A DNA stretch of 62,903 bases, filler included, from Reclinomonas americana ATCC 50394 (GCA_048213135.1; 22 parts of 22 records of this genome joined end to end with filler, not necessarily neighbours in it), one strand, 5' to 3'. Positions 3,301 to 58,127 are shown, counted from the first letter of the whole stretch. Notes: generated by a model from the letters alone, not told the origin. Numbers and translations are program-made.

Positions 3301-6120
3301 GAAGTGCGCCGACTGTATGGCCACACGGGTCCGGTGCATGCAGTAGCAGTGACACCCGATGGTCAGTACATTGTAAGTGGTAGTGAAGACAAGACTGTAC
3401 GGGTGTGGTCGGTGGCAAGTGGCGAGGAGGTGCGCCGACTGGAAGGCCACACGTGGGAGGTGTGGGCAGTGGCGGTGACACCCGATGGCCAGCACATTGT
3501 AAGTGGCAGTCACGACAAGACTGTGCGATTGTGGTTGCTGGCAAGTGGCGAGGAGGTGCGCCGACTGGAAGGCCACACGAGTGAGGTGCATGCAGTGGCA
3601 GTGACACCCGATGGTCAACACATTGCAAGCGCCAGTGGGGACAAGACTGTACGGTTGTGGTCGGTGGCAAGTGGCGAGGAGGTGCGCCGACTGGAAGGCC
3701 ACACGAGTGTGGTGTATGCAGTGGCAGTGACACCCGACGGCCAGCACATTGTGAGCGGAGGTGGAGACCAGACTGTGCGAGTTTGGTCCCTGGCAAGTGG
3801 CAAGGAGGTGCGCCGACTGGAAGGCCACACGAGTGGGGTGCATGCAGTGGCAGTGACACCCGATGGCCAGCACATTGTGAGTGGCAGTGATGACAAGACT
3901 GTTCGAGTGTGGTCGGTGGCATGTGGCGAGGAGGTGCGCCGACTGGAAAGCCACACGAGGGAGGTGTGGGCAGTGGCAGTGACACCCGATGGCCAGCACA
4001 TTGTGAGTGGCAGTAAGGACAATACAGTACGGGTGTGGTCGGTGGCAAGTGGCGAGGAGGTGCGCCGACTGGAAGGCCACACGAGTGAGGTGCATGCAGT
4101 GGCAGTGACACCCGATGGCCAGCTTATCGTGAGTGGCAGTTTGGACGGGACAGTGCGGGTGTGGTCGCTTTCAAGTGAGTACGACGTGTGCCGACTAGAA
4201 GGCCACATGGATGCGGTGCTTGCAGTGACAGTGACACCCGATGGCCAGCATATTGTGAGTGGCAGTATGGATAATACTGTGCGATTATGGTCGGTGGCAA
4301 GTGGCGAGGAGGTGCGCCGACTGGAAGGCCACATGAGTGAGGTGTGGGCAGTGGCAGTGACACCCGATGGCAAGCTTATCGTGAGCGCCAGTGGGGACAA
4401 GACTGTACGGTTGTGGTCGGTGGCAAGTGGCGAGGAGGTGCGCCGACTGGAAGGCCACACGGGTGTGGTGTATGCAGTGGCAGTGACACCCGACGGCCAG
4501 CACATTGTGAGTGGCAGTGATGACAAGACTGTACGGGTGTGGTCCCTGGCAAGTGGCAAGGAGGTGCGCCGACTGGAAGGCCACACGAGTGGGGTGCATG
4601 CAGTGGCAGTGACACCCGATGGCCAGCACATTGTGAGTGGCAGTGATGACAAGACTGTTCGAGTTTGGTCGGTGACAAGTGGCGAGGAGGTACGTCGACT
4701 GGAAAGACACACGAGTGGGGTGTGTGCAGTGGCAGTGACACCCGATGGCCAGTATATTATGAGTGGCAGTTGGGATGAGACTATACGGGTGTGGTCGGTG
4801 GCAGGTAGCGAGGTGGTGCGCCGACTGGAAGGCCACACGAGTGGGGTGTGTGCAGTGGCGGTGACACCCGATGGCCATTACATTGTAAGTGGCAGTGGGG
4901 ACGAGACTGTACGGATGTGGTCGGTGGCGACTGGCGAGGAGGTACGTCGACTGGAAGGACACACGAGTGGGGTGCTTGCAGTGGCAGTGACACCCGTTGG
5001 TCAGCACATTGTGAGTGGCAGTTGGGACGAGACTGTACGGATGTGGTCGGTGGGAAGTGGCGAGGAGGTGCGCCGACTGGAAGGCCACACGAGTGAGGTG
5101 CATGCAGTGGCAGTGACACCCGATGGCCAGCATATTGTGAGCGCCAGTGGGGACAGGACTGTGCGATTGTGGTCGTTGGCAAGTGGCGAGGAGGTGCGCC
5201 GACTGGAAGGCCACACGAGTGTGGTGTATGCAGTGGCGGTGACACCCGATGGCCAGCACATTGTGAGTGGCAGTCATGACGGGACTGTACGGGTGTGGTC
5301 GGTGGCAAGTGGCGAGGAGGTACGCCGACTGGAAGGCCACACGCGTGAGGTGTGGGCAGTGGCAGTGACACCCGATGGCCAGCACATTGTAAGTGGCAGT
5401 CACGACAAGACTGTGCGATTGTGGTTGCTGGCAAGTGGCAAGAAGGTCCGCCAGTTGGAGGGCCACACGTGGGAGGTGTGGGCAGTGGCGGTGACACCCG
5501 ATGGCCAGCACATTGTGAGTGGCAGTAAGGACAAGACTGTGCGATTGTGGTTGCTGGCAAGTGGCGAGGAGGTGCGCCGACTGGAAGGCCACACGTGGGA
5601 GGTGTGGGCAGTGGCGGTGACACCCGATGGCCAGCACATTGTGAGTGGCAGTATGGACAATACAGTACGGGTGTGGTCAGTGGCAAGTGGCGAGGAGGTA
5701 CATCGGCTGGAAGGCCACACCAGTTGGGTTCTTGCAGTGGCAGTGACACCGGATGGTCGCTACATTGTGAGTGCATGTCGGGACAAGATTTTACGGGTGT
5801 GGTCGGTGGCAAGTGGCAAGAAGGTCCGCCAGTTGGAGGGCCACACGAGTAACGTTAATGCAGTGGCAGTGACATCCGATGGCCAGCACATTGTGAGTGG
5901 CAGTTCTGACAAGACTGTACGGGTGTGGTCGGTGGCAAGTGGCTCTGAGGCGCACCGACTAGAAGGCCACACTAGTGGGGTGCTTGCAGTTGCAATGACA
6001 CCCAATTACAAAGACATTTTCCCGCCTTGGAGTATTTCGCTTCTTGTGCGCCTTCGTGAGGAAATGCTCAAGCGTGTAATCGGCTCCTTCCTGCCTGATT
6101 TCGCCGATGTAATTCGGTGA
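343..6120 (+). CDS. NLR-like STAND protein, copy 1 (Ubl - HEPN-like - NACHT - pentapeptide - 22 WD40), interrupted by a frameshift near 2802; split gene or pseudogene
   Basis: Predicted exons 343-348, 450-748, 810-830, 922-2839 (stop), with the WD40 frame continuing 2806-6120. Walker A GNSGAGKT, Walker B LLLLDGYDE, sensor-1 IITCR, NPFLL, winged-helix FVHLSLLEH, pentapeptide ADLRD/ADLRG/ADFRG, then GH...W repeats. Alignment with copy 2 shows a 7-nt deletion at the frame switch. Confidence 0.9.
450..700 (+). other. N-terminal ubiquitin-like (beta-grasp) domain exon of NLR copy 1
   Basis: MS|FSVNVS...STLADLLREA...LGINSSTHVVVRL resembles the ubiquitin pattern (MQIFVK...TLSDYNIQKESTLHLVLRL). Copy 2 reads KLKTLGINSSIHLVVRL. 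Confidence 0.6.
923..1500 (+). other. HEPN-like (DZIP3/Swt1-type) putative RNase effector domain of NLR copy 1
   Basis: Helical region with FDTTALTSIML followed by R-x4-H (RKGLAH, 1343-1360). The paralog has the canonical RNELVH (11122-11139). Confidence 0.65.
3187..6003 (+). repeat. Tandem array of 22 full plus 1 partial 126-bp (42-aa) WD40 repeats
   Basis: Unit EGHTxxVxAVAVTPDGQHIVSGSxDxTVRVWSVASGEEVRRL, counted directly. DNA is nearly identical between units. Confidence 0.97.
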
Positions 6121-10057: not shown

Positions 10058-13000
10058 ATGTTGGTGAGTTGTATTGATTGAGTGGGGGACGCTTGTTGTT
10101 CGCACGCTTCTCCGTGTCTTCTCTCTCACTCGTCGCTTGTCACTCACTGCCTTTGTGTGTGCGACAGTTCTCTGTGAATGTGAGTGCGGCGCATGATTCG
10201 TCGCTGTCGGTGGAAGTGGCGGGCATGTCGGCCATGTCCACTCTGGCGGACTTGCTGCGCGAGGCCACTCGCTTGCTGCGCGAGAAGAGTGGAGATGCGG
10301 GAATGGAGATTGTGGGAGTGGAGAAGCCCGTGCCGTATGACTTGGAGGATGCGACTGTGACGAAGCTGAAAACACTCGGCATCAACTCATCAATACACCT
10401 TGTTGTCCGTCTGACACTTGGCGTGGCGCTACAGCCGAGTGGAGGGAGTGGAAGGCATGTGTGCTGGATGCTTGCGAATCATGTCACTGCGCCAAATATG
10501 CAGCTCACTCTCGCTCCTTCGCACAGCAACTCGGAGCGAATGACTCGGTGTGTTTCTTGCCTTCGTCATCTTCCTCTCTTCTCTTCTTTGTTCTTCCACT
10601 CGGATTGAGTCTGTGCTGATTGTGTTTGTTTGTGCACGCACAGCATGATCAACTTCAATCGCATCAACATGGCCTTTGAGGTGGTGGAGGAGGCCGTGCG
10701 TCTCCGTTGTCAACGCGCGCTGGCTCAGTTCAGTCGCGATCATCCCGACTTTGATGTGCGGGCGTGGGCTTCGGATTTGTGGTTTCCGCGTATCATGCAT
10801 TGTGACTTGTGGAAGTGGGTGCCCTGCTTTGTGTTGGCTGGCATGCACATGCATGAGGCGGCAGTGAAGTCTTGGCGTGGGCGACACGCTCCACTTCATC
10901 CTGGGCGAGTCATGTTGTTTGAGGAGAAGCAGACGGCGGCGTTGGCCTGGCGTGCTGCGTTCGACGCCGATCCATCATCCGACCCTCCGTGTGACGGATT
11001 CGACACAACGGCACTCACGTCCATCATGCTTTTTGGTGGCCTGGTACTCGAGGACGGTCGCAAGGTGTTGTTAACGGATGATGCGGACGAACGAAAGGCG
11101 GTGGAGCTGTTGCGAGTGGTCAGAAATGAGTTGGTCCACGGATCATCGGCATGGAACGAGGCCGGTGTGCAATTGTATCTCGGTGACGGCGGTGTGTTCC
11201 TCTCCTTCCTCGGCAAGCTGCGCCTTCCTGTCGATGCAGTCGCCAGATTTGCGACGCGGATTCGCGATGCGCGCCATCTCGACTTTAACGTCAGCACATT
11301 TGAGGAGCGACTCTATCGACTGGCGGCGCGTGAGCTCTCATTCTACCAGCACGACGAGAGTTTGCGCAAAGGCATGCAGATGTATGTTCCACTGCTGTGC
11401 TCACGCGATCGTGACGTCTCATCGAGGGAGAAGATGATGGATCTGTTGACGGAGGTGGATGTTTTCCTCGCCGACGCCAACACCACGCAGCGTATGCTGG
11501 TGCTCTTTGGCAACAGTGGGGCCGGCAAGACCACCACCATGTCGATGCTGGCCGAGCGAGCGTGGCGACAGTGGCAGACAAGAGAAAGCAGAAGGGTGCC
11601 TGTTCGTGTGCCCCTTGGTGCTCTGCGCAATGCCGATGAGCGACTGTTGGAGGAGACACTGGAGCGACTGTCTCCCGAGTTGGGATTCAGTGAGTCGGAT
11701 GTGCGACGGTTGAAGGAGGAACCACTGCTGTTATTGCTTGACGGGTACGATGAGTTGTACCGTGGTGTGAATCTGTTTGTCAAGAACCAGCTGGACGTGT
11801 GTCGCGATGTGAAGGTGATTATCACTTGTCGTGGCGATTACGCACTGACGGCACTGGGTGGTGTGCCGCAGTATCGACGGTTGTTTGCACCGATAGATGC
11901 ACGAGGACAGTTGTGCATGCAGCAGTTGATGGAGAGATATATTGCGCCGTTCAGCAAGGAGCAGATTGAGGAGTACTTCGAGCGACTGGTGCAGGTGGGT
12001 GGTGATGATGATGATGACGGTGGAGTGCGATGGTCGACTGCCGAAGAGTACATTCGTGCACTGCAAAGTGTGCATGGACTGGATGCACTGGTGTCGAATC
12101 CTTTCCTGCTAGCAGTGGTGGCTCGTGTGTTGCCGGAGTTGGTGGCGAGTGGTGTACAACGACCGACTCGGTGCGATGTGTTTGACCGATTCATTCGACA
12201 GTGGATTGTGAGGGAACAGGAGAGGCAGACGCGTCTCGGTGCGGAGCGTGTACCGCGGGAGGAGACCTGTTTGGCGTTCTGTGAGGGACTGGCACGGTTG
12301 ATGCATGAGAGGAATGTGGTGCGTGTGTCTGTGTCGGAAAGTCGGTCGTGGGATGATGGTGGAGAGGATGATGACGACTTTGGCGGTGCACCTCTCGCCT
12401 TGCGACGGGTGGAAGAGGGACCGTTTGACAAGTTCCTGGGCGAGAAGAACCAGCATGTGCGAGTGTGCTGTCCGATTGTGCGACGGTATGGGACGACGCA
12501 GTGGGGATTCGTGCATCTGTCGTTGTTGGAACACTGTGTGGCACGCCATGCGTTTGCATGGGAGACGTGGGATGAGGAGAGGAGATTGACAATGCACGAT
12601 GTGCAACAGCATGTACTGGCAGTACGACTGCTGAATGATCGACCATCGTTGGTGGAGCAGATGGCCGAGGTGGTGCGACGATCTCCTGCGTTGCAACCGA
12701 GACTGTGGGAGGTGATTGAGATGTCACGCGAGGTGGATGAGGAGCGAGTGGTGACGGCAGCAGCGAATGCTGCGACAGTGCTGTGTGTGGCACAAGTGTC
12801 GTTCAGTGGCCGTGATCTGTCGAGTGTGCGAGTGAGGGGTGCGGATTTGAGGGATGCGGTGATGCACAGAACGGTGTGGAGAGGAGCGGATATGCGAGGG
12901 GTGAATGTGTGCTTGGCGTACGCGAGGGAGGCGGATTTCAGAGGGGCGGATGTGACGGATGTGAAGTGGCCGAGGGAGCCGATGGTGGGACACGCGGGTT

Positions 13001-13788
13001 GGGTGCGTGCAGTGGCAGTGACACCCGATGGTCAGCACATTGTGAGTGGCAGTGATGACAAGACTGTACGGATGTGGTCTGTGGCAAGTGGCGAGGAGGC
13101 GCGCCAATTGGAGGGCCACACGTTGTCGGTGTCTGCAGTTGCAGTGACACCCAATGGTCAACACATTGTGAGTGGCAGTCGGGATAAGACTGTACGAGNN
13201 NNNNNNNNNNNNNNNNNNNNNNNNNNNNNNNNNNNNNNNNNNTTAATTAATTAANNNNNNNNNNNNNNNNNNNNNNNNNNNNNNNNNNNNNNNNNNNNTC
13301 AGCACATTGTGAGTGGCAGTGGTGACAACACTTTACGAGTGTGGTCGGTGGCAAGTGGCGAGGAGGTTCGCCGCCTGGCAGGCCACACACATGCGGTGTA
13401 TGCAGTTGCAGTGACACCCGATGGCCAGCACATTGTGAGTGGCAGTTCTGATGAGACTGTACGGGTGTGGTCGATGGTAAGTGGCGAGGAGGTGCGCCGA
13501 TTGGAAGGCCACACGAATGCGGTGCGTGCAGTGACAGTGACGCCCGATGGCCATCACATTGTGAGTGGCGGTGATGACAAGACTGTGCGGATGTGGTCTG
13601 TGGCAAGTGACGCGGAGGTGCGTCGACTGGAAGGCCACACGAATAGGGTGAATGCAGTGGCACTGACATCCGATGGCCAGCACATTTTTCAACGTGAGAA
13701 GGCTGTACTTCTTGTGCGCCGTCGTGAAGGACTGCTCGAGCGCATTCTCGGCTCTTTCCTTCCTGATTTCACCGATGTTATTCTGTGA
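10058..13788 (+). CDS. NLR-like STAND protein, copy 2 (Ubl - HEPN - NACHT - pentapeptide - WD40), apparently intact; the WD40 array is broken by an assembly gap
   Basis: Predicted exons 10058-10063, 10168-10454 (GC donor), 10527-10547, 10644-13198, gap, 13299-13788. Motifs RNELVH, GNSGAGKT, LLLLDGYDE, NPFLL, FVHLSLLEH, pentapeptide and WD40 units are in one open frame. C-terminal tail GSFLPDF is shared with copy 1. Confidence 0.9.
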
Positions 13789-14791
13789 TGAGCACAACTG
13801 CGAGCGCGTATGAACCCTCGAATACATGCCAGTTTATTTTTTATGAGGTCACGTGATGTAAACATGCGTGTAATCTTCGCCCTCAAGTTGTATGCCGTGT
13901 GTGTTGATTGACCATCACGAGATAATCCACTCGTTGTCCACTTTCTCTGTTGCAAGAAACCACAGCGACCTGACGATGCACTGCACCGCCTGTTTGCTGT
14001 CGCTTCTGCCTGCATCTTTCGCCGATGAAGGTGACCGTTGATCCAGCTCCCCCTTGACACCGCGGAGGTCGTTGTTGCCAAGCACGCCGTCTTCATCGCC
14101 TCGCATTCATTTTACTGCGATGCGACATCGTCATACCATGTAAGCATTCGACGGAAATGCGTTCTTCGAGTTCCAGAAGCACACATGCGTCGCAATTTAC
14201 TGGCAGGAGATGAAACAAGAGTTGTCACTGGATCCTGACGAGTGTGCGTGCAGTGGCTGATAGGAATCTCGTGTTATGATTTCGCGGCGCGGATGTCGGT
14301 TGACTTGCTGTGCTAGCGACACATGCGATACCGCGCCATTGTTCTTTGCGTGTGACGAAACTGTGAGTAGTGTATTGTGAGCCTCTGTCGTTGACGCATG
14401 ATCTCGAACGCAAGGAATAGAAGCGGCATTGAATGTCTGCGTGGTTCAGCAACTGCGCAATACGGACCTGCTATTTGTTTACTCATCCATTTCATTATCC
14501 TCCACAATGAGAGAGACAAAGGAGACTCAAAACGCAGGAAGACAACGAGAGGCAGACACAAAATCACTCTCAAAAAACATTCACAAACGCGTCACTGTCA
14601 CGAGGACGCATGTACATGCGGGTTGCGACAATTCCGAGACGTCGGTGCTCAACTGAATGGTGGGCATGTGACAACACATGCAGGCGGCCGTTCCATGCGA
14701 TCGGTCAAGTACACCAGTCACATGGTCGCATGATCGAGCATACCGCAAGCGTGGTCATGCTCACACAGCAACCGGCGTTGCATGACGGGAA

Positions 14792-14843
<52 letters not shown>

Positions 14844-17028
14844 TAGAGAGAGAGAAGAANNNNNNNNNNNNNNNNNNNNNNNNNNNNNNNNNNNNNNNNN
14901 NNNTTAATTAATTAANNNNNNNNNNNNNNNNNNNNNNNNNNNNNNNNNNNNNNNNNNNNAAAAGAGAGAGAGGAAGATAATGAAGGAGAGACAAGAAGGA
15001 GAAGCGCTCTCACGTGGTGAATTTCACCATGAAGACATGGGGTGAAAAGAGTGAAGAGATTCACTCACACTGACATCTCCAGTCAAAAAGACCATCGTAG
15101 CGATCCTTCCACCCACACTGTCACCTGATCACTCACATGGCGTGGTATGAATGATCGAGACAAGCGACCAATTCAAGCTCATGCCCCGCACATGCACACT
15201 CTCTCTCTCTCTTCTCATGTATCTCTGTACTCTTTCCCCTCTGCGTAACAATCAGGGACACAGAGAGCGACATGGAAGAGACAACTCGATGTTGAGATGA
15301 GGGGAGAGCGACAAAGACACATGCTCATCACCGGCATTGGGCGAATAGAAATAAGGGACATCCTGCAAGTAAGGGAGACAGAGAGGGAAGAGACAGACCA
15401 ACAAACCAATAGGCAAAGTATTCCTGCTGGCGATTTACAAAGCAGCGACGAAATGCAGTCTCTCTGTTGATGCCACACATGAAAACAATGCCCGTCGCAT
15501 GTAATGAGAGAACAAACAACAACAACGATCCATGTACGTGAGAGAGATGGAGAAAAACGGACGCAGGTGGACGAGATGGATGGTGCGTTTTGTGCTCCAT
15601 GCATCACCAGCCAAGCCTGTGGAGACAAGGAATAAGCAGGAGAGACGGGAGAAGAGAGAGAGAAGAGATGGAGATGAATGACTCCCACAATGCCACCAAC
15701 GCAGAGAAGGCATAATGGATGCGCTTTCTCCTCTCTCTCTCTCCTTCCCTCCATCACCATACACAATAGCGTCTCTCCCCACTCGCAGATGATGTTCTCT
15801 CTCTCCTCCATTTCTCACCCCACACATTCACGGTCACCAATGACCAGACGTATCCCAGAAGGAATGAGAGATATTCTCCACATTTCAGGCTTTCCTCTTT
15901 TTCACACGACCTCTCTCTCTCTCTCTAAATTCCCATGCACCACGCTCATCTCCCAAGCATGCCGTTCAACAGAAAAAAACACACCATGAAATGTGATCAA
16001 GAAAAGTGGGAAAGAGAGATTGTGGTGGAAAAGAGAGAGAGGGGGGAGGAGGAACATTGGGCGTGGATGGATAGATGGATAAAGGAGAGAAACACAGAGA
16101 TAACGAAAAGAGATGAACAAAGAGCAGCAGGAACGAGGGAAACGAAAGCATGAGTGCACGAGAGATGAGACGAAGAGAGACAACAACACACGGATGGAGG
16201 ATGCAGAGATATGCATGACAGACCACGATAAAATGAGCAAGAATACGCGCACATGGACGACGCTCACACTCCCAAAGAACAAGGAGGTGAGAGTCAATGC
16301 CGATAACCAAGAAGAAAAGAGACAATAAGAATAGATGAAAGGAAAGACAGGAAGGAGAATGCAACGGATGGAAATGGAGGGAGATGCACGAGGCTGCTTT
16401 CTCACGCGAGGAGAGGGAGGGGGGAAAATTCAGGAGGAGACAGAAGGGATGAGAGGGGAAGGAAGAAGGAAAAAAGGACAGGATGTCAATTCAATTTGCA
16501 CGGTCATGGAGACGATGAAGGCGATAAACAGGAAGAGACGAATCAACGGCACGTACACACGAATACACGCGACAGCAAGAACTCGAAAATGACAGAGGAA
16601 AGAAAAAAAGCAGACGAGGAGGAAGGGGAGTGGAGAGGGTGGAGAAGGAGAAGCACGAGTGCGTGTTCATGCAATATCACAAAATGAGGTGAAATGGAGA
16701 TGAAGAGCGGAGTGACAGAGGGTAACCACCCTGCAAGAACAAGCCCGACAGAGAGCGGCTCAGCGCAACAAGCATGTGTGTGGCAATGGTGATCAGAGAC
16801 GGAGATGCAAGACGAAGGGAGAGAGACGGGGCGAGTACGCAGAAAGGGATGTAAATGGATGGAGGGTGGGAGAGGGAGAGAGAGAGAGCGAGAGGGACAA
16901 TGGACAAATGATGCGTGTGTGCAGTAGGNNNNNNNNNNNNNNNNNNNNNNNNNNNNNNNNNNNNNNNNNNNNTTAATTAATTAANNNNNNNNNNNNNNNN
17001 NNNNNNNNNNNNNNNNNNNNNNNNNNNN

Positions 17029-28951: not shown

Positions 28952-29600
28952 CCGAGTTCAACCGTATCCAAAACATCAACACACACACCAATCTTGAGAC
29001 AGCAGCAGGTTCCTTGTGTGTGTGTGTTCGCTCTAGATCTCGGAGCTCCGAACAAGTCGAGAACTGCGATCTTCACCGCATAAGCGTGGTTGACCAGTGG
29101 CTTTGACGCACTTGCAGACGCATAGCGTTCAACGAGTCGTCTTGGCGAAGGGGCACGCCAACTCCACCACCTGGACCGAGCAGATCTCACCAGTCCTCTC
29201 TCTGGTGTGAACCAAATGGATGAGGTCCGGCTTGAGCCTGGCCAAGTTGGCGTGGTTGGCAATGTCCACCGCCGCAGGCAGCAAGTCGACGTCGACACAC
29301 TCGCGCAACAGCTGGCACGCCACACCGTCCACCTTGGGGCGCCGCACCAGAGTCGCTTGAAGGACGCCAAACACGTTGTCGTGGCGCGTCGTCCACAAGC
29401 CCTTCAGCTTTTCACAGCCGTTGAGCAAGTGACCGAGCGACTCCACAGAGTGCGTTGCCGCGCTGATGACAGTGCCGCCTTGTTGTTGAGCATGACGGAG
29501 TTGGTCCGCATCTTGCACAGGAAGCGTTGCTCCTTCTCGCTGATGCCGTTGCCCTGAACCACCACGTCATGGGTTCCAACAGCAGCCTTCTGCAGAGAGT
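28952..29600 (-). mobile_element. Decayed RLE-type non-LTR retrotransposon 3' fragment (partly deleted CCHC knuckle plus restriction-like endonuclease)
   Basis: EQRFLCKMRTN...ESLGHLLNGC...RHDNV...LKPDLI...VVELACPF. Near-identical to copies at ~32.7-33.2 kb and ~35.2-35.7 kb. Confidence 0.85.
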
Positions 29601-30822
29601 CGACAAAGGCCAGCCCACAATATGACGCTTGGAGCAGAAGTGTAACATCGCAGGCAAAAAGCGAGCGGCAAAGGGAAACACAACACCACCGTCAGCCAGC
29701 CGTCCGACCACCATGACCAGCGGAGGCTGACCAGCACACTGACACCCAACTTCAGAGCGTGCCCGAGAGCCGAGAGCAACACCCATCAGATTGGAGCGAA
29801 CAGCGCGACGATCGCGAGGAGCGCTTCGGATCAGTGGCCACTTGGAAGCGAGTACCTGCAACAGGAGCAACCGCAGCAGCACCAGCCGGAGGAGCAACAG
29901 GAGACAACAACACAGAGAAATACCGCTGTGGCGAGTGGCAACTGGCAGCTGTTGGCGACTGACGTCTGTGACCTCCTCGTTCGTTTGTCGCAGCGGTCGG
30001 CAACGGCGAAAAATCGTCAACACGACCATTACTTCTCTCACATACCGTACTCTCTTTCGACGGTTTGGCGTCGCTTTGGATCCGCCGGGGTGCCCCGGTG
30101 TCGGTACATGCAGCGTCGGAGAAGCACCATTGATGCCACAGCACCATGTGCATCTCGGGGAGGCAGCGCGAGTCTGCGTCAGCTTCAGTAATGCATCTCC
30201 TGCACGGCTGCCAGAGCCACGCGCGCACATTCCAGCTCGCAGTACTANNNNNNNNNNNNNNNNNNNNNNNNNNNNNNNNNNNNNNNNNNNNTTAATTAAT
30301 TAANNNNNNNNNNNNNNNNNNNNNNNNNNNNNNNNNNNNNNNNNNNNCTAGTTTTCTCTGCTTCTTTCTCTCCATTTCTCCCACTGTTATTTTTTGCTTT
30401 GTCTGCACACACACACAAACACACATACGTTCAACTTTGCGGAGGAAATCTAGAGTGCTTAGAGCGTGGCGAGTTGTGGGGGGTTTCCCATGGTCTGATC
30501 GAAGTGCCTATATTTCCAAATTTGGCATATCCTTTTGCCAGTATGTTGCATGATATCTCTCTCTTCACGCATGCACGCATTCACACGCTGTTTTTTGCGC
30601 ACAAGAGAGAGAGAGGGAATGAAACTGATAGTACATACCAACGCGGCACACGGTGGATGTGTGTGTGTGTGTGAGTGTGTGAGTCTCTTTATGGTGCACA
30701 CAGCTCGCGCCAGCTTCCTGTGTGATCGTGTGTTCATCTTTACACCGCGATCCTTCGTCGAAGTGACCAACTCATTGAGTTGCCGATGCTAACCAGTACT
30801 GTGGATCGTGTGTGCGTGCAGG

Positions 30823-32373
30823 ATGCCTGTACAGAACTCCACAGACCCGTTGTTGGTTGCTCTGCTGGAGAAGCAGCAACAGATGCTCCAGGAGCTCATG
30901 CTGCAGCAGCAACAGATGTTCCGGGTGCTAACGGACGCCGTCCTAGAAATAGGCGCCGGCCTGCGCCGTGATGCTGCGCAGCCGCCACAGCAATCGCAGT
31001 CCAGTGCTGGCAGTCTCGAGACATTGTGGCACAACACGGTAAGACCGGCGGACATATCGCGACATCTTTTCGATGGGGAGCTGCTTATTGTATTGTGTGC
31101 GTGCAGACTTCGCGGCACAAAGTGTGCGCGTTGAGCTGCGTTCGAGGTGGCATGTATCGCTTGGCCCAGTTTTCTCGCGAGCTCGAGGCAACAAGCGCTG
31201 CGGCTGGCAGCAGCAGCGTTGAACCAAGGGGCTTCTGGAAGGAGATTGACGCCTGTCATATCTTTCCTCTCAACCCGAGTCGCGCATGCACGGATGCTCT
31301 CCGCGTGTGTGCGTCGGACATGCTCGTTGACCATGGTGCTGATGTCTCGCATGTGACCAATGGCGAGGTTCGTGAATGTGATGTATCTCCATTGTTCTCC
31401 ATGTCGAGTAGTGGCAGTCTATTGTTAACAAGACTCACCAGGTCTACAAATTTTCGAATTGGAGGGATGCCGAGACGCTGTTTCTGCGCATCACTGGTGT
31501 CGCGACCAGCGGAGATTTGCCAGCTTGCTGCCACTATGCGGTCACCGCCGGCCGCAGTATGAACAAGACAATCCTGAACTGCGTGAGGAACTTTGTGGCG
31601 TTGCCGAAACGTCTTCATACGAGACTTGACGCCCACTGCATCCTGCTGTCGGTGAGTCCTTGTAACTTATATGTTTGTTGTGCCGCGTCTTCTAATTAGT
31701 GCGTGCATCAATGCATCCATGTGTCTGTCGGTGTCGACGAACAGTTCGATGGAGAGGTCTGGGATGCGCGTTCTTGCGAAAAAATCATGACTACGGCGCT
31801 TGATGGCCAGTACCGATGTGTGGTGGATGGCACGTGCACCGGTGAGTCGCTAATGCTGATGCTGCTGGTCTTGTCGTTGCTGCCGTGATGGTATGGTGCA
31901 TTGTTGCTGAGAAACTTTTCTTTGACTTGTCAGTGCACGAGAATTGCGGTGGATCGTTCCGCGTCTGGCGGCAGGACTGCCCTGCTCACATGCGACCACA
32001 CCGTCAGATACTGCTGGTCCACCACATACTGGTCTATCGCAAATTCACCACCATATGGGCTGAACAAGACGCGGTGTTCCCGTGGCGCCAATTCTACAAT
32101 GACGATTCGGTCAACAGTCCGTATGACTTCCTGCGGCGCCACGGACTGAAAGACTTTGACATCGACGACGATGCGGTACTTCATACTCGTTGCATCGGTC
32201 ATGTATATGTGTGTTCTTTTTCACTGACCGTTATACTCCTCCCCCAGTTGCAGGCACTATGCGAACAGCTGGATGAATCGGACGGTCGACTGGGCCTGAG
32301 CAATGGTGATCTGGCTCTCAATCCGAATTTGACAGATTCCGAATCCAGCGCTAGCAGCGGTCGCGATCTGTAG
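30823..32373 (+). CDS. Spliced HNH endonuclease (HNH_2 / Crinkler-type CR-HNH-like), copy A
   Basis: Exons 30823-31038, 31107-31367, 31442-31651, 31745-31841, 31934-32175, 32248-32373 join in frame. Motifs KVCALSC, DACHIFP, NCVRNFVALPKRLHTRLD and RPHRQILLVH. An acceptor-like site just before the ATG suggests a possible upstream exon. Confidence 0.75.
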
Positions 32374-32549
32374 TCGAGACGTCGACATGTACAGGTCTAC
32401 GGCTGCCAGATCCATACGACAACTCAAGTTCCCCATCTACAACTCTTTCTGCGATACAGTACAGTAATCAGATGCATGCGAGACACTTGTCAAAAGAATT
32501 GCTTGCCACTTGGTGAGCAATGGCAGCTGCAGATAATAATAGAAACTTC

Positions 32550-33879
32550 ACTAGTACTGATCCATACACAACAATGAGCATCTAGATCTCTACCAATGAT
32601 CGCCGACAAGCCTCGTGTGCTTTCCTTCTACAACTAAAACTGTTTTAAGTGTGTTGCCGATGTTGAGAATAAAGCCCTATTCAGGACACACAGCCTCCAT
32701 CGAGGTCACAGGGAGCACCACCAGCTCAACTTTGACCTGATCGCTGCGCCGACCTTCTGCTTGATGGCCTTGACCAACGACTCGTGCTTGGTCTTCTTGC
32801 CGTTGACAGCGGACTTGACCGAGTCTTCGTTGCAATTGGCGAAGGGGCACGTCAACTCCACCACCTGGACCGAGCAGATCTCACCAGTCCTCTCTCTGGT
32901 ATGAACCAAATGGATGAGGTCCGGCTTGAGCCTGGCCAAGTTGGCGTGGTTGGCAACGTTCACCGCCGCGGGCAGCAAGTCGACGTCGACACACTCGCGC
33001 AACAGCTGGCACGCCACACCGTCCACCTTGGGGCGCCGCACCAGAGCCGCGTGAAGGACGCCAAACACGTTGTCGTGGCGCGTCGTCAACAAGCCCTTCA
33101 GCTTTTCACAGCCGTTGAGCAAGTGACCGAGCGACTCCGACTCCTTGCCACAGAGTTGGCACAGCGAGGCAGGGCCACCCGGGTTGCCGCGTTGATGACC
33201 GCCACCTTGTTGTTGAGCATGACGGAGTTGGTCCGCACCTTGAACACCCTCAGAAAAAACACAACTACATGTACAGTATGCACTTCATGATCAAAGAACC
33301 AGGCAGCCGCCCTTCTTCACCTTTCTTCTTCGGTTCAACGACAGCAGTGCATGCGCAGATGGCGACAGCGAGGCAACCAGCAGCCGCAACAGTGAGCCAC
33401 CGAGGCAGGCGCGACTCAGAAATGCGCTGCTGTGGGAATCGACTCAGCCTCTGTTTGCCACCACTGAACGCCCACACTACAAAGTCCTCCTCGCCTTTGG
33501 GAACCCTTCGACCCGCCGTCAGGCGGCGTGCCACCTCCTTCTTGTGCATCACGCTACACCAAATCGGCGCAGTGATTGTCAGTCGGCGGCACGCATCGGC
33601 GTCGACGTCAACGTTGCCACCAGAGGCACTGCCACTGCTGTCAGCACTCATGTCCAGCTCAGCAAGGAGCTCTTCACCGACTCGGTCCAGTCCAACGGCC
33701 GGCTCGGGGAGCATGGACAGGAGCGATCCGGCCTCGGCGTTTTGCTGCAGCTGCACGAGGCGGTCATCGTCCACCGTGAACACGCTCTGTCGTAGAACAT
33801 CGAGAATCCCAACAGCGTTGCCCGCCCGCCCAATGAAGAAGCGGGTTGCTACTTCGTCAGTACTTTCGTCGTCGCTCAT
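32550..33879 (-). mobile_element. 5'-truncated, frameshifted RLE non-LTR retrotransposon remnant, copy A
   Basis: CQLCGKESESLGHLLNGC (C-x2-C-x7-H-x4-C), RHDNV, KPDLI, VVELTCPF, KKTKHESL. The upstream ORF 33265-33879 is probably the RT-to-RLE linker (less certain). Confidence 0.85.
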
Positions 33880-34031
33880 TAATCAACGGGATGATGGTCA
33901 CCACATACAAATCCGACATTTTCGACTGTTTNNNNNNNNNNNNNNNNNNNNNNNNNNNNNNNNNNNNNNNNNNNNTTAATTAATTAANNNNNNNNNNNNN
34001 NNNNNNNNNNNNNNNNNNNNNNNNNNNNNNN

Positions 34032-34856
34032 CACCGCCGGCCGCAGTATGAACAAGACAATCCTGAACTGCGTGAGGAACTTTGTGGCGTTGCCGAAACG
34101 TCTTCATACGAGACTTGACGCCCACAGCATCCTGCTGTCGGTGAGTCCTTGTAACTTATATGTTTGTTGTGCCGCGTCTTCTAATTAGTGCGTGCATCAA
34201 TGCATCCATGTGTCTGTCGGTGTCGACGAACAGTTCGATGGAGAGGTCTGGGATGCGCTTTCTTGTGATCAAGTCAAGACTACGGCGCTTGATACCGGCC
34301 AGTACCGATGTGTGGTGGATGGCACCGGTGAGTCGCTAATGCTGATGCTGCTGGTCTTGTCGTTGCTGCCGTGATGGTATAGTGCACTGTTGCTGAGAAA
34401 CTTTTCTTTGACTTGTCAGTGCACGAGAATCCCGGTGCACCGTTCCGCGTCTGGCAGGACTGCCCTGCTCACATGCGACCACACCGTCAGATACTGCTGG
34501 TCCACCACATACTGGTCTATCGCAAATTCACCACCATATGGGCTGAACAAGGCGCGGTGTTCCCGTGGCGCCGATTCTACAATGACGATTCGGTCAACAG
34601 TCCGTGTGAATTCCTGCTGCGCCACGGACTGAAAGACTTTGACATCGACGACGATGCGGTACTTCATACTCGTTGCATCGGTCATGTATATGTGTGTTCT
34701 TTTTCACTGACCGTTATACTCCTCCCCCAGTTGCTGGCACTTTGCAAACAGCTGGATAAACCGGACGGTCGACTGGGCCTGAGCAAGGGTGATCTGGCTC
34801 TCAATCCGAATTTGACAGATTCCGAATCCAGCGCTAGCAGCGGTCGCGATCTGTAG
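34032..34856 (+). CDS. HNH endonuclease, copy B (5' part in gap)
   Basis: Same exon layout and motifs (RNFVALPKRLHTRLD, RPHRQILLVH) as copy A, with many amino-acid changes. Confidence 0.75.
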
Positions 34857-35009
34857 AGGTCTACAACTGCCAGATCCATACGACAACTCAAGTTCCCCAT
34901 CTACAACTCTTTCTGCGATACAGTACAGTAATCAGATGCATGCGAGACACTTATAAAAGAATTTGCTTGCCACTTGGTGAGCAATGGCAGATAATAATAG
35001 AAACTTCAC

Positions 35010-36328
35010 TAGTACTGATCCATACACAACAATGAGCATCTAGATCTCTACCAATGATCGCCGACAAGCCTCGTGTGCTTTCCTTCTACAACTAAAACTG
35101 TTTTAAGTGTGTTGTCGACGTTGAGAATAAAGCCCTATTCAGGACACACAGCCTCCATCGAGGTCACAGGGAGCACCACCAGCTCAACTTTGACCTGATC
35201 GCTGCGCCGACCTTCTGCTTGATGGCCTTGACCAACGACTCGTGCTTGGTCTTCTTGCCGTTGACAGCGGACTTGACCGAGTCTTCGTTGCAATTGGCGA
35301 AGGGGCACGTCAACTCCACCACCTGGACCGAGCAGATCTCACCAGTCCTCTCTGGTATGAACCAGATATCGATGGGTGAGGTCCGGCTTGAGCCTGGCCA
35401 AGTTGGCGTGGTTGGCAATGTCCACCGCCGCAGGCAGCAAGTCGACGTCGACACACTCGCGCAACAGCTGGCACGCCACACCGTCCACCTTGGGGCGCCG
35501 CACCAGAGTCGCTTGAAGGACGCCAAACACGTTGTCGTGGCGCGTCGTCCACAATTGCAAGCCCTTCAGCTTTTCACAGCCGTTGAGCAGGTGGCCAAGC
35601 GACTCCAACTCCTTGCCACAAAGTGGGCACAGCGAGGCAGGGCCACCCGGGTTGCCGCGTTGATGACCGCCACCTTGTTGTTGAGCATGACGGAGTTGGT
35701 CCGCACCTTGAACACCCTCAGAAAAAACACAACTACAGTATGTACTTCATGATCAAAGAACCAGGCAGCCGCCCTTCTTCACCTTCGGTTCAACGACAGC
35801 AGTGCATGCGCAGATGGCGACAGCGAGGCAACCAGCAGCCGCAACAGTGAGCCACCGAGGCAGGCGCGACTCAGAAATGCGCTGCTGTGGGAATCGACTC
35901 AGCCTCTGTTTGCCACCACTGAACGCCCACACTACAAAGTCCTCCTCGCCTTTGGGAACCCTTCGACCCGCCGTCAGGCGGCGTGCCACCTCCTTCTTGT
36001 GCATCACGCTACACCAAAGCGGCGCAGTGATTGTCAGTCGGCGGCACGCATCGGCGTCGACGTCAACGTTGCCGCCAGAGGCACTGCCACTGCTGTCAGC
36101 ACTCATGTCCAGCTCAGCAAGGAGCTCTTCACCGACTCGGTCCAGTCCAACGGCCGGCTCGGGGAGCATGGACAGGAGCGATCCGGCCTCGGCGTTTTGC
36201 TGCACGAGGCGGTCATCGTCCACCGTGAACACGCTCTGTCGTAGAACATCGAGAATCCCAACAGCGTTGCCCGCCCGCACAATGAAGAAGCGGGTTGCTA
36301 CTTCGTCAGTACTTTCGTCGTCGCTCAT
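35010..36328 (-). mobile_element. RLE non-LTR retrotransposon remnant, copy B
   Basis: CPLCGKELESLGHLLNGC, RHDNV, KPDL, VVELTCPF; frameshifted. Confidence 0.85.
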
Positions 36329-36518
36329 TAATCAACGGGATGATGGTCACCACATACAAATCCGACATTTTCGACTGTTGTTTCTCGCCGTTTCCGTGAT
36401 GTCAGAAAGAGTTTCTGGTGCCCACTCAAGATGGTGATCTTCATGCAGCTGTGTTGTTCCATAAACGGCGGTTTCTACTCTCTCTTCTCCTTTTTTTTTG
36501 CTGCAACCACTAACTACT

Positions 36519-45336
<8,818 letters not shown>

Positions 45337-45419
45337 TGCCGCACAACCAACAGTGAGGACAGACACGCTCGCGCCTTCTTCGCGCGCAAAACATAAAATC
45401 ACAGCAAACCCTGTTGGAA

Positions 45420-45804
45420 ATGTGGCGCGACGACGACGATCTTGCTGCTGTGTGGCGCCCGGGTGCGCCCAGTGGCATTGGTGCTGGTCTGTGCATGCAT
45501 ATGCACATGTTTCTCTTTGTTGGTCTTCTGAACACTTTTTGCTCTCACTCTCCTCCTCTCCCTTCCTCTCTTTCCCCCTCTCCTCCTCCTCTCTCTCCTC
45601 CGTGCAGGTATCGGTGGTGCGCGCGTCGGCTCGTCGGTTGGTGACATTGAGGGATTTGACATGCACGAAGACGATGAGCGGGAGACGCGACACCAGGCAG
45701 CGCGATTAATGCGCACTGCGTGGCGCAATGAGCGGTGTGCGCCTGAGCTGTTGCCGTACCAGGCCATCCTCGTCGACATTCTGCGTGGTCACATTGAGAA
45801 GATG
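45420..45804 (+). CDS. SLD5: GINS complex subunit SLD5 (GINS4), 5' part
   Basis: LMRTAWRNERCAPELLPYQAILVD...HIEKM matches the Sld5 N-terminal W.NE..APELLPY motif. Donor GTGAGA at 45805. Confidence 0.85.
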
Positions 45805-45920
45805 GTGAGAGGAGAGGGNNNNNNNNNNNNNNNNNNNNNNNNNNNNNNNNNNNNNNNNNNNNTTAATTAATTAANNNNNNNNNNNNNNNNNNNNNNNNNN
45901 NNNNNNNNNNNNNNNNNNAC

Positions 45921-55044: not shown

Positions 55045-58000
55045 TCAGAAGTACGGCTGCAATTCCACGTCCTTCTTGGCCAGCTCCAGCAGCATGGGGT
55101 CGTCGAAGAATTTGTTGATGCTCACATCGTCGCTCATGCCCTGCACCGATACATCGTGTCAGATCGATTGGTTCCCACTGTGCCGTTTCTTTTCCGCCTC
55201 TCTCCTTCTCACTCACCTTTCGTCGACGAGTCTTGACCATAAAGTCGCGTGCCAGCGCCGGTGCCGGGCTCGGCTCCAGCGGGCGCAGAATAATGTTCTT
55301 GTCCAGCGGGTCACCAGGCACCACCGACCAGTGATCAAATGTTGACTGCGCGGGCGGACGAGACAATGAGGCCCAATCGATCCATAACGACACACACACA
55401 CCCACACACACATGCGGCGGCAACGTACCTGGCAGAACGCTTGTCCTTGCGTGTGCACGCGGATATCGGTCTCCAGTCCGAACGAGTCGATCACCGGCAC
55501 GTATGCGTGCATGGTGTACAGCGGCGAGCCGGGCTTCGGCTGGTCGCTGACCACGTGTCCACGACGCCGCTGCAGCACCGTGGTGATGGAGGGCACGCAG
55601 TCCACGGGGCACTCAATTTCGACATAGTACATCGGCTCCATCAGACGCGGCGTGGCCATCAGGAACGCCGAGTAGCACACGCGGCGTGCCGTGGGAATAA
55701 TCTGACCGCCACTGCGATAAATCGGCTCCTGGGCAATGGACGCGTCCAGGATCTTGAACTTGGCACCACGGATGGCTGCGCGCAGAACACAGCATGTCAG
55801 CGACACTACGGGCGCCACACTTTTATCCTACACACACCCCTCAACGCAACGTTCTTCACACAGGGGTCCCTCGCGCGTGGCCCACTGGAAGCCTTGCACG
55901 ATCGAATCGCGCACACCAAACAGCAGCTTCTTGTCGACCTCCGACGGCAGTGTGTCGTCCAGCAGGATGTTGGGCCCTCGTGAGTCGGGCCCGAATGCCC
56001 AGATGGAGCGCGCCGCCAAAATGTCCCACCCGTACTTGGGTTGCTGGAAGAAATCGGCCAGCGTCTTGCGGTCCCAGTTGAGATCCACGAGACCCGTCTC
56101 AATCTCCAGATCGAGTCCCTTTTCCAGTGGTTCCGCAATCATCGTCAGCTTGTTCCTGCGAAACAGAGAGAGAGAGAGAGTCGATGAGTTCATCACGTCG
56201 AATGAATGTCTACACAAACAAAACACAACTTCTTGTTGGGGGTCTCGGCAAAGCACTTGAGCGACGACGTGTCGGCCACAGTCTCGCAGAACGACACGAT
56301 CGGGTCGGCGACCTTGACCTCGATGTCCGAGTACAAGCGACGCAAATCGTGCAGCACGGCATCGAGGTACAACTCGCCGGCACCAAACAGCACGTGCTCG
56401 CCACTCTCCTCGGCCTTGGTGTGCGCCATCGGGTAGCTCTTGCTGACCTTGCGCAGGCCGTCGAGCATTCTTGGCAATTCGGACGGATTCAGCGGCTCAA
56501 TGGCCACCTTGACCACAGACAGCGAGTTGAATTTCAGCGGTCGGAAAATGTGCAGCTCCTCCGTCGCCGACGCCGACACCACCGTCGCCGTCTTCATGAT
56601 GGTCGGGTCGATGCCCTCCAGCAGAACCCAGTTGCCGGCAGGAACACGCGCCACTTCGATGCGGTATCTGCGCGCACAAGGTTGAGGGACACACACACAC
56701 ACACACGACGTGCTCTCCATAGCGAACCGTGCTTCGTAGATCCACACTTTTGAGATGGTGGCCACCGCCATGTCCTCCTCATCAAAGCTCGAGTACGCCT
56801 CTCCCAGCACCTTGACACGCTCGCCGAGACGCGCCGTGCCACTCATCACGCGACCGAGTGCGTCGAATGTTGAGCAGTCGGGCTTGTGATACAGCTTGGT
56901 GATGTTGATGACCAGCGGCCCGGCAGGATCCACTCGTGCCATGGATTGCGCAAAGTCACCATCAAGCGGGCCAGTCCACGTATTGAGCACCTTGGCCGGT
57001 GCACCCACCTCGGGTGACGGCAAGTGGTGCACCATGGTGTCCACGAAACCATTCGGCTGCAAGCAACAACACAACAAAAAGGGTGTGAGAGAGCAGGTAC
57101 ACAGACAGCTGTCAGAAGTGTCACGCACCTCCTGGAAGAACGCCTGCAACACGTGTCGCAACAGCGGCTGCACGTCCTCCTTCAGTTGCGAGTTGCGCAG
57201 ACGCACGCCAATCGAGTCGAGAGTGGTCTTCAACGTGGCCGGCTCCTCGCCGAGCACCTGACTGTACAACTTGTAGATCGGCTCCATCACAAACTGCACA
57301 AATGTGCGCTCGGAGCCCTCTCCACTCGGTGCCTTGCCCACAAAGCCGCGTGTCTCCGCATCGAACCACACATCGCCCCACAATCGTCGCACAAACCTCG
57401 CCAGGTCAAAGTCCACACCTGTGAAAAAAGAACAAGTGAGACTCTCACTTCCACGATGCCTCTCCTCTTCTTCTTCCTTCACTCACCAAACATGTCGACG
57501 TAGATGCGTGCAAACGACGGCAGCGTAAACGACCAGCCGTGCAGACCCGAAGCGAAAATGACATTGCCACGCTCGGGCGACAGGTACATGGCCGAGGCGC
57601 GTGTGGGCGCCAGCTGTGCCACCAACGAGTTCACCTCCTCAATCGTGTGTCGCAGCTTGTGGTAGGCGTCGCGCGGCGGGATCTTCAATTCGCAAATCAG
57701 CCGGTCCACCTTGTTGATGGCCAGCACGATCGGGATGTCCTCCTGCAGCGCCTGCCGAATGCACCGCCGTGTCGTGTTCATCACACCCTCGACGGCGTCG
57801 ACCACCACCACCGCACCGTCGCACAGTCGCAGTGAGGCGGTGACCTCGTCCATAAAGTTGGCGTGGCCGGGTGTGTCGATAATGTTCATGAGGAACGACT
57901 TGTTGCGCAAATCCTGCAGCACCAGCGTCATCGGCATGCACTTGATGCCGAGACCGCGTTGCTGCTCATCCACGCGTGTATCCGTGTAGCGCAGCTGTGC

Positions 58001-58127
58001 GCAGGGAGGAGAAGCACGATGTGTGGCGAGTGAGTGGTGGCGCGATGATGCGGGAGGTGCAATGGGAACCAACCTGCTCGGCCGCCTCACGATCGGTGAC
58101 ATGCGTGTGTCGCACCAGCAGATCCAT
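55045..58127 (-). CDS. SNU114: U5 snRNP GTPase SNU114/EFTUD2, 5' end in gap
   Basis: [86 protein letters not shown]; all introns checked are GT-AG. Confidence 0.98.

Follow-up and report, generated by a model that had tools for sequence, protein, structure and literature searches.

Near-identical paralogs with a ratio of nonsynonymous to synonymous divergence (dN/dS) of about 3 are normally taken as arms-race genes. Mutational processes can also leave characteristic marks, and cut-and-paste transposons that use hairpin intermediates, for example, leave excision footprints that consist of the target-site duplication and palindromic 'P' nucleotides. Short-range template switching is associated with clusters in which nearby substitutions and small indels occur together (compare PMC5453318), and duplicated overlapping contigs often arise from two haplotypes of one locus, according to Kelley and Salzberg (PMC2864568). 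The locus that is compared with these systems here lies in a window of 62,903 nucleotides (the whole stretch of DNA that was analysed) from Reclinomonas americana ATCC 50394 (GCA_048213135.1), and it comprises an HNH-like gene and a second version of its 3' part, which differ by many more amino-acid replacements than silent changes. Caution is required before this pair is taken for an arms-race gene: the contigs that carry it dovetail, and the test of selection is borderline. The two forms, A and B, are real variants, namely two sequence versions of one 2.4-kb segment. A clustered, palindrome-making mutational process acting on weakly constrained sequence is proposed, tentatively and at slightly below an even chance, as the main cause of the replacement excess, and the palindromic insertion signature is the part of the results most deserving of follow-up.

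The comparison involves two neighbouring contigs, the overlap between them and the two forms of the gene.
30348..33931, unstranded: contig c12, 3584 bp, lying between separators; it holds the full gene copy A and overlap version A.
33932..34031, unstranded: artificial contig separator, 44 N + TTAATTAATTAA + 44 N; the only possible place for a duplication junction.
34032..37117, unstranded: contig c13, 3086 bp; overlap version B lies at its start and the 3' end of an RRP5-like gene at its end.
31543..33931, unstranded: overlap version A; its counterpart in c13 is 34032-36380.
30823..32373, plus strand: HNH-like gene copy A, with six exons, 383 residues, an open spliced frame and GT..AG at all five introns.
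34032..34856, plus strand: HNH-like gene version B, the 3' 188 codons only, with splice sites and frame intact.

In an all-against-all blastn comparison of the contigs, positions 1196-3583 of c12 (of 3584) aligned with positions 1-2348 of c13 at 95.05% identity over 2404 columns. Within this overlap A and B differ by 51 substitutions in 2334 aligned sites and by 11 internal indels. Every one of the six 6-bp indels among the differences has the same structure, in which one version carries X-revcomp(X)-X, X being a 3-mer, and the other carries X alone (6/6; chance at most 6e-8). These sites, written X-X'-X below, and the additional copy that allows some of them to be polarised are located as follows.
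31831-31839, 32524-32532, 33267-33275 and 33745-33753, unstranded: X-X'-X sites in version A, where B has X only.
35365-35373 and 35552-35560, unstranded: X-X'-X sites in version B, where A has X only.
29142-29519, contig c11, unstranded: third copy of about 430 bp from the segment of the minus-strand open reading frame (ORF) minus2, with 11- and 24-bp deletions and different flanks; certainly separate from A and B.

The c11 copy polarises two of the X-X'-X sites, and both prove to be insertions derived in B. One of them stands in a run of 31 columns together with a 2-bp deletion and two substitutions, which are also private to B. Two further X-X'-X 9-mers are contained in a 19-mer that is present only in A and lies right after the stop codon (32374-32392). 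The association with palindromes extends to the substitutions, since 20 of the 51 substituted sites are inside a hexamer palindrome that exists in one version only (15 in B, 5 in A), while 9.9 are expected (P = 0.0004; 0.006 with the spacing kept). Across the window, 71 X-X'-X 9-mers were counted against about 20 expected; plain hexamer palindromes are not enriched (972 vs about 980). After a low-complexity filter 63 of these 9-mers are left, compared with 12 for a reversed-only control, and 17 of them are in c12 and 11 in c13. The density of such 9-mers in the two contigs is about 14 times that expected. The older paralog pairs in the same window (c1/c3, c2/c5 and c1/c4) show one 6-bp indel, which is not of the X-X'-X type, and the signature is therefore not general in the window. 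In searches of the literature on palindromic 6-bp insertions or footprints, no description of the X-X'-X pattern was found. These insertions are the most unusual observation of the analysis and, if real, would point to a little-described signature of mutation or repair in a deep-branching eukaryote. Elsewhere in the window, a tandem array of the palindromic hexamer GGTACC was noticed at the start of contig c18 (47988-48017), and it could have arisen by repeated X-X'-X insertion or by plain slippage.

The structure of the differences also bears on whether they are genuine. The contigs are short (1.1-7.2 kb) and separated by many assembly gaps, as would be expected if sequencing or consensus errors in short, low-coverage contigs had produced the differences. 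However, the 11 internal indels all exceed 1 bp, and the differences are therefore unlikely to be read errors; moreover, 8 of the 11 are multiples of 3 and the differences as a whole are structured. Two small, independent-looking sets of DNA reads match c12 exactly at 31180-31608 (one of them to 31591), a stretch that holds no variant site. Errors of this kind are hardly credible as the source of the pattern.

The proposed mutational process would be local and would yield several changes at once, in the form of tandem and closely spaced substitutions. The same process would generate the 6-bp insertions, by which X becomes X-revcomp(X)-X, as well as substitutions that create hexamer palindromes. 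The process may consist of synthesis by fold-back or short template switching; hairpin-type break repair or excision footprints are the other candidates. Many of the differences would have arisen in such events, in coding as well as non-coding parts of the overlap, and in coding sequence under weak constraint. The contig geometry, the counts, the clustering and the association with palindromes are shown, whereas the mechanism and the weak constraint are inferred. Compared with transposon excision footprints, X-X'-X could be read as the remnant of a 3-bp target duplication that was kept, with three P nucleotides added. However, no such element was seen in the window, and an extreme local rate of insertion and excision would be required to leave about 15 footprints within 2.4 kb. 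The likeness to short-range template-switch clusters (compare PMC5453318) consists in the co-occurrence of nearby substitutions and small indels, in the inserted 3-mer being the reverse complement of the adjacent 3-mer and in the completion of an inverted repeat in variable patch 2 of the gene (below). The present locus is unlike them in that the inserted unit always has 3+3 bases (6/6), a search for reverse-complement donors of whole substitution clusters found none and the signal is concentrated at one locus. When the template-switch criterion was applied, i.e. new sequence equal to the reverse complement of nearby sequence, it fitted the six hexamer insertions but not the substitution clusters.

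A bolder form of the mutational proposal, which is considered quite unlikely, is that a specific and recurrent process that generates palindromes acts on this locus in particular, its insertions being accompanied by nearby substitutions that create hexamer palindromes. The conversion of X to X-revcomp(X)-X would add two codons wherever it occurred in an exon, and would thereby diversify an orphan nuclease-like gene together with its neighbours. Possible causes are hairpin-type break repair, or an element that duplicates 3 bp of its target and has repeatedly moved in and out. If this were true, the replacement excess would be what a local generator of diversity leaves behind, with selection possibly accentuating it.

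Over 187 aligned codons of the gene, 19 residues are replaced by 20 nonsynonymous nucleotide changes (one codon has two), and only 2 changes are synonymous; three in-frame indels are also present (+3, -6 and -3). The three introns shared by the two versions (93+92+72 = 257 nt) differ at two bases and contain no indel. This recount returned the numbers given in the first-pass annotation, which had reported about 19 replacements, 3 in-frame indels, about 2 synonymous changes and about 2 differing intron bases. The changes are distributed as follows.
31577..31636, plus strand (residues 205-224): N...H half of an HNH_2-like motif, identical in version B at 34066-34125.
31769..31835, plus strand: variable patch 1, with R238L, E241D, K242Q, I243V, M244K, one silent change, a +3 insertion and a -6 deletion (palindromic hexamer).
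31945..31969, plus strand: variable patch 2, with C266P, G268A, S269P and a -3 indel; B forms a perfect 10-bp palindrome.
32068..32304, plus strand: variable patches 3-4, with D307G, Q314R, Y325C, D326E, R329L, Q344L, E348K, E352K, S353P, N361K and one silent change.

All replacements fall at residues 225-361, and the first of them (residue 225) directly follows the identical N...H half. In patch 2, two changes turn an imperfect inverted repeat into the perfect palindrome of B. The substitutions are spread almost uniformly over the three codon positions (8/9/5), and in the exons 10 transitions stand against 12 transversions, compared with 22:7 elsewhere in the overlap (p = 0.041). Mutation resembling repeat-induced point mutation (RIP) was also considered, and it is ruled out by this exon ratio of 10 to 12. 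Multi-nucleotide events would be expected to give mostly replacements, because nonsynonymous sites make up about 77% of the total and transversions are frequent in the spectrum, and in this way they would inflate the replacement count. The 6-bp insertions are in frame by construction.

The differences are not confined to the gene. Divergence between A and B amounts to 3.9% in the HNH-like exons (22/564), 0.78% in the introns (2/257) and 2.9% in the 3' flank of the gene (9/307). In the two minus-strand ORFs of the overlap, it reaches 2.6% in ORF2 (15/571; 9 nonsynonymous and 6 synonymous changes) and 0.5% in ORF1 (3/585).
32706..33284, minus strand: ORF minus2 (ORF2), 192 residues, with a CCHC zinc-knuckle region of the zf-RVT type; its counterpart in B, 35164-35746, is frameshifted.
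33265..33882, minus strand: ORF minus1 (ORF1), 205 residues, of no family and with 0.5% divergence between A and B.

The naive contrast between exons and introns is significant (Fisher p = 0.013). However, the substitutions are over-dispersed along the whole overlap (dispersion index 2.3-2.5), four tandem double substitutions occur among the 51, and circular shifts that keep the spacing produce an exon/intron contrast at least as extreme in 2.6-3.9% of cases when made across the overlap, and in 20% when confined to the gene. The tandem doubles, the over-dispersion and the association with palindromes mean that the changes are not independent, although the tests of selection assume independence. 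The overlap is a mosaic, in which divergence ranges from 0.5% to 3.9% by segment and eight identical runs of at least 100 bp occur.

Such a mosaic would also be produced by patchy gene conversion, in which short tracts are copied from diverged family members elsewhere, and donors without introns would explain why the clusters are restricted to exons. In agreement with this, changes private to one lineage lie in runs: in the minus2 segment, where c11 provides the comparison, the A-private and B-private changes form 3 runs among 12 sites (P = 0.013). Nevertheless, a tblastn search of the contigs of the window with the spliced protein found no further HNH-like copy that could have served as a donor, and the X-X'-X insertions would not be explained by conversion. 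Gene conversion is thus an improbable cause of the replacement excess.

The principal alternative to the mutational process is diversifying selection on the C-terminal region of the HNH-like protein, with change favoured in a few surface patches, and the formal tests were directed at this question. They involve two sequences only and assume that changes are independent, while the observed changes cluster. The NG86 method gave dN = 0.048, dS = 0.016 and a ratio of 3.08, and its counts yielded p = 0.13 in a Fisher exact test and p = 0.087 in a one-sided binomial test. A pairwise maximum-likelihood codon model under three frequency settings gave omega (the dN/dS ratio) of 3.4-3.75, with 2dlnL of 3.6-4.3 and p = 0.038-0.057, and the 95% interval of omega from the profile likelihood is about 0.97-22. 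A neutral simulation with the observed 10 transitions and 12 transversions led to 5.7 expected silent changes and P(S<=2) = 0.048. Since omega = 0.5 is rejected (2dlnL 10.3), purifying selection on the C-terminal region of about 190 residues between the two versions is rejected. The point estimate of omega lies above 1; neutrality, however, is not robustly rejected, and the significance of the excess is borderline.

Several observations weigh against a mainly mutational origin, and most of them favour selection on the protein. Silent changes number 2 in the true reading frame, as opposed to 5 and 7 in the other two. Nonsynonymous divergence (20/431) is greater than that of introns and silent sites together (4/387; p = 0.003), and also greater than that of all other sites in the overlap (p = 0.0004). 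The proportion of nonsynonymous to synonymous changes is 20:2 in the gene and 9:6 in the minus2 ORF (Fisher p = 0.042), and the introns have just two changes and no indel. The open frame and every splice site have been retained in both versions, and the replacements are gathered in four or five patches, many of them altering charge or cysteines. In addition, no reverse-complement source for the exon substitution clusters was found within 150 bp.

On the other side, omega = 1 was never robustly rejected, the interval starting from about 0.97 and the Fisher test giving p = 0.13, and the independence on which these values depend is violated. One in five of the within-gene circular shifts matches the exon/intron contrast, and the 3' flank and minus2 diverge nearly as far as the exons. 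The in-frame 6-bp indel of the gene belongs to a mutational class present throughout the overlap, and its in-frame state is therefore no evidence for selection. Furthermore, the analysis turned up no immunity partner, no secretion signal and no toxin family. Diversifying selection is therefore regarded as rather unlikely, and the mutational explanation as at least as good an account of the 20 nonsynonymous and 2 synonymous changes. The first-pass annotation had described a strong excess of replacements and intense diversifying selection. Replacements do outnumber silent changes, the formal dN/dS does come out above 1 (3.08-3.75) and purifying selection is rejected; the p values of 0.038-0.13 are nevertheless borderline only, the interval reaches 1 and the changes are not independent, so that the intensity ascribed to selection is not borne out. 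If reads confirm both versions, the locus would be a small test case for the mutational share of dN/dS values above 1 between young copies.

The setting in host-parasite conflict or toxin/immunity biology that had been suggested for the gene likewise found no support; its minus-strand neighbour looks like a retroelement-derived fragment of the zf-RVT type. Polymorphic toxin/immunity or allorecognition loci are resembled in that variation falls in the C-terminal part of a nuclease-like protein and that the scaffold carries duplicated NACHT-WD40 genes. They differ from the present locus, where neither an immunity partner nor a secretion signal nor a toxin family came to light; in addition, omega above 1 is not established here and the neighbour is retroelement-like.

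Whether A and B are alleles or a young local duplicate depends on the geometry of the contigs. Segmentation showed that the 62.9-kb window is not continuous but is composed of 22 contigs of 1.1-7.2 kb each with separators between them. The window contains 21 copies of TTAATTAATTAA, each with 44 N on either side, while 0 would be expected by chance. The core motif of this separator is described as one used between contigs in pseudomolecules of unfinished genomes (PMC539331). The order of the contigs is nevertheless real: a series of RRP5-type domains (Suf/HAT-like, S1, S1_RRP5 and OB_RRP5) continues on the minus strand from c13 through c14 and c15 to c16.

The 3' end of c12 dovetails with the 5' end of c13 over 2.4 kb, and the alignment spans from the first base of c13 to the final bases of c12. 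This is the sole junction among the 21 in the window with overlapping ends. The two contigs are neighbours in one scaffold, and their similarity is limited to the ends that face each other and extends to about 10 bp or less from either contig end, as is the case for duplicated overlapping contigs. An assembled junction or diverging flanks, which would mark a true tandem duplication, are not found in c12 and c13, and no assembled junction joins the end of the segment to its start between the two contigs. The copies that had been called recently duplicated are the dovetailing ends of two adjacent contigs, and a recent duplication is only one possible reading. The chances of alleles and of a young local duplicate are about even.

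A false duplication, in which a single locus appears twice because two haplotypes (or culture variants) gave rise to duplicated overlapping contigs, so that the differences are allelic, is only just short of evenly likely. The adjacent contigs align only at their facing ends, to a few bases from both ends, as in the published definition (PMC2864568), the outer 94-100 bp of the overlap are identical (the first difference between A and B comes 94 bp in, and the final substitution lies about 100 bp from the end), version B begins in the middle of an exon with its frame intact, and the end-to-start junction of the segment is not in the assembly. In terms of the duplicated overlapping contigs described there, the likeness covers the neighbouring position in the scaffold, the alignment of facing ends only and the unique opposite ends; the identity here is 95%. 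The case is unlike them in that one junction of 21 is concerned and that part of the segment exists in a separate third copy of about equal similarity, so that real paralogy is also possible. Other signs of heterozygosity are absent from the window, and genuine local duplications are found nearby, as c1 is 78-82% identical to c3/c4 and c2 85% identical to c5. Moreover, over 374 ungapped columns the separate c11 copy is about as near to A and to B (14 differences from each) as A is to B (12 differences).

A true young local duplication, with a unit of at least 2.4 kb and its junction, possibly together with the 5' half of B, hidden in the gap, is put at the same level of probability. Duplications are common at the locus, and at least three local copies of the minus2 segment exist (A, B and c11), whose private changes in the same 374 columns (6 in A, 6 in B and 8 in c11) describe a star-like relationship. 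Breaks between contigs are also common in this assembly, with one about every 2.9 kb, and many of them coincide with repeats. However, no junction has been assembled and both contigs end inside the region of similarity. Were the duplicated unit no longer than the assembled 2.4 kb, B would lack its 5' part, and yet its frame has been kept through three indels and 22 substitutions.

The gene model appears sound as far as sequence alone can tell. The exons of copy A are placed at 30823-31038, 31107-31367, 31442-31651, 31745-31841, 31934-32175 and 32248-32373, and those of version B at 34032-34140, 34234-34327, 34420-34658 and 34731-34856, the first of which begins at the first base of c13, in mid-exon and with the frame intact. 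The GC contents at the three codon positions of copy A (0.61/0.44/0.66) are like those of the conserved genes of the window, while the introns have 0.47, and a codon-usage score built from these conserved genes is best in frame 0 of the model.

The label HNH is weak. The Pfam profile HNH_2 (PF13391) gave 13 bits (E 0.099) for exon 3 of copy A and 15.7 bits (E 0.014) for a 32-residue piece of version B, values obtained by scanning single exons and not the spliced protein, and below the gathering cut-off of 21 bits; the matches cover only positions 35-64 of the 66 in the profile, i.e. its C-terminal half. A histidine motif upstream, at residues 121-126 in exon 2, was recognised by eye only. It lies about 80 residues before the N...H half and is assembled in copy A only; exon 2 scanned alone against Pfam gave no match at E <= 1. 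The two putative half-motifs would thus be separated by a long spacer, in a domain interrupted by an intron. In its similarity to HNH_2 the gene offers the match of exon 3 in both versions to the C-terminal half of the profile and the histidine motif upstream by eye; it is unlike HNH_2 in the scores below 21 bits, in the long spacer and in exon 2, which gives no match. No relatives of exon 3 were found among the longer proteins searched, and no usable Atlas match; in a sequence search of the PDB the best hit to exon 3 (E 0.063) was unrelated. A search with the C-terminal 146-residue read-through ORF against 1.84 billion representatives returned no matches. The gene is best described as lineage-restricted, with a sub-threshold HNH_2-like motif. 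Accordingly, the term nuclease used in the first-pass annotation goes beyond the sub-threshold matches to exon pieces on which it rests, and the two HNH copies reduce to one complete copy and the 3' 188 codons of B, which start at the first base of c13. The putative catalytic motifs had been reported as unchanged, and this holds for the N...H half, which is identical in both versions, but cannot be said of the upstream histidine motif, which is present in the assembled part of A only.

On the minus strand, minus2 gave 16 bits with Pfam zf-RVT (PF13966), under the cut-off of 27.5. Its Atlas feature matches (0.94-0.96) are eukaryotic hypothetical proteins, including one cluster with zf-RVT in 24% of its members, which is a lead only. 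No relatives of minus2 were found among longer proteins or in the PDB, and an AlphaFold model from the single sequence had a mean pLDDT of 37.9 and is unusable. In B (35339-35380) two indels separated by 18 bp, a 2-bp deletion and a 6-bp insertion, shift the frame; the 192 codons of A form an open frame. Minus2 looks retroelement-derived and unlike an immunity partner, and together with minus1 it is regarded as a retroelement-derived pair of ORFs.

Further features of the window lie outside the overlap. An Rfam search of the window gave no matches. The older and real local duplications of the scaffold are NACHT-WD40 genes, with local paralogs 78-82% identical at 827-6120 (c1) and 10609-14859 (c3 and c4). 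They contain long arrays of 126-bp WD40 units that are 80-86% alike, one ORF having 22 WD40 stretches, and the pair resembles STAND/NLR-type genes with concertedly evolving repeats. Many contig ends lie in (GA)n, (CT)n or (GT)n microsatellites, e.g. at 7213/7314, 14859/14960, 37218 and 47886. The RRP5-like gene extends over four contigs on the minus strand (36519-45818, c13-c16). In c21, a Snu114/EFTUD2-like gene is found at 56196-58126, and the organism is a eukaryote with no close relative among the full-length proteins searched, where the gene's best identity is 56% and its best matches are spread evenly across plants, animals and protists.

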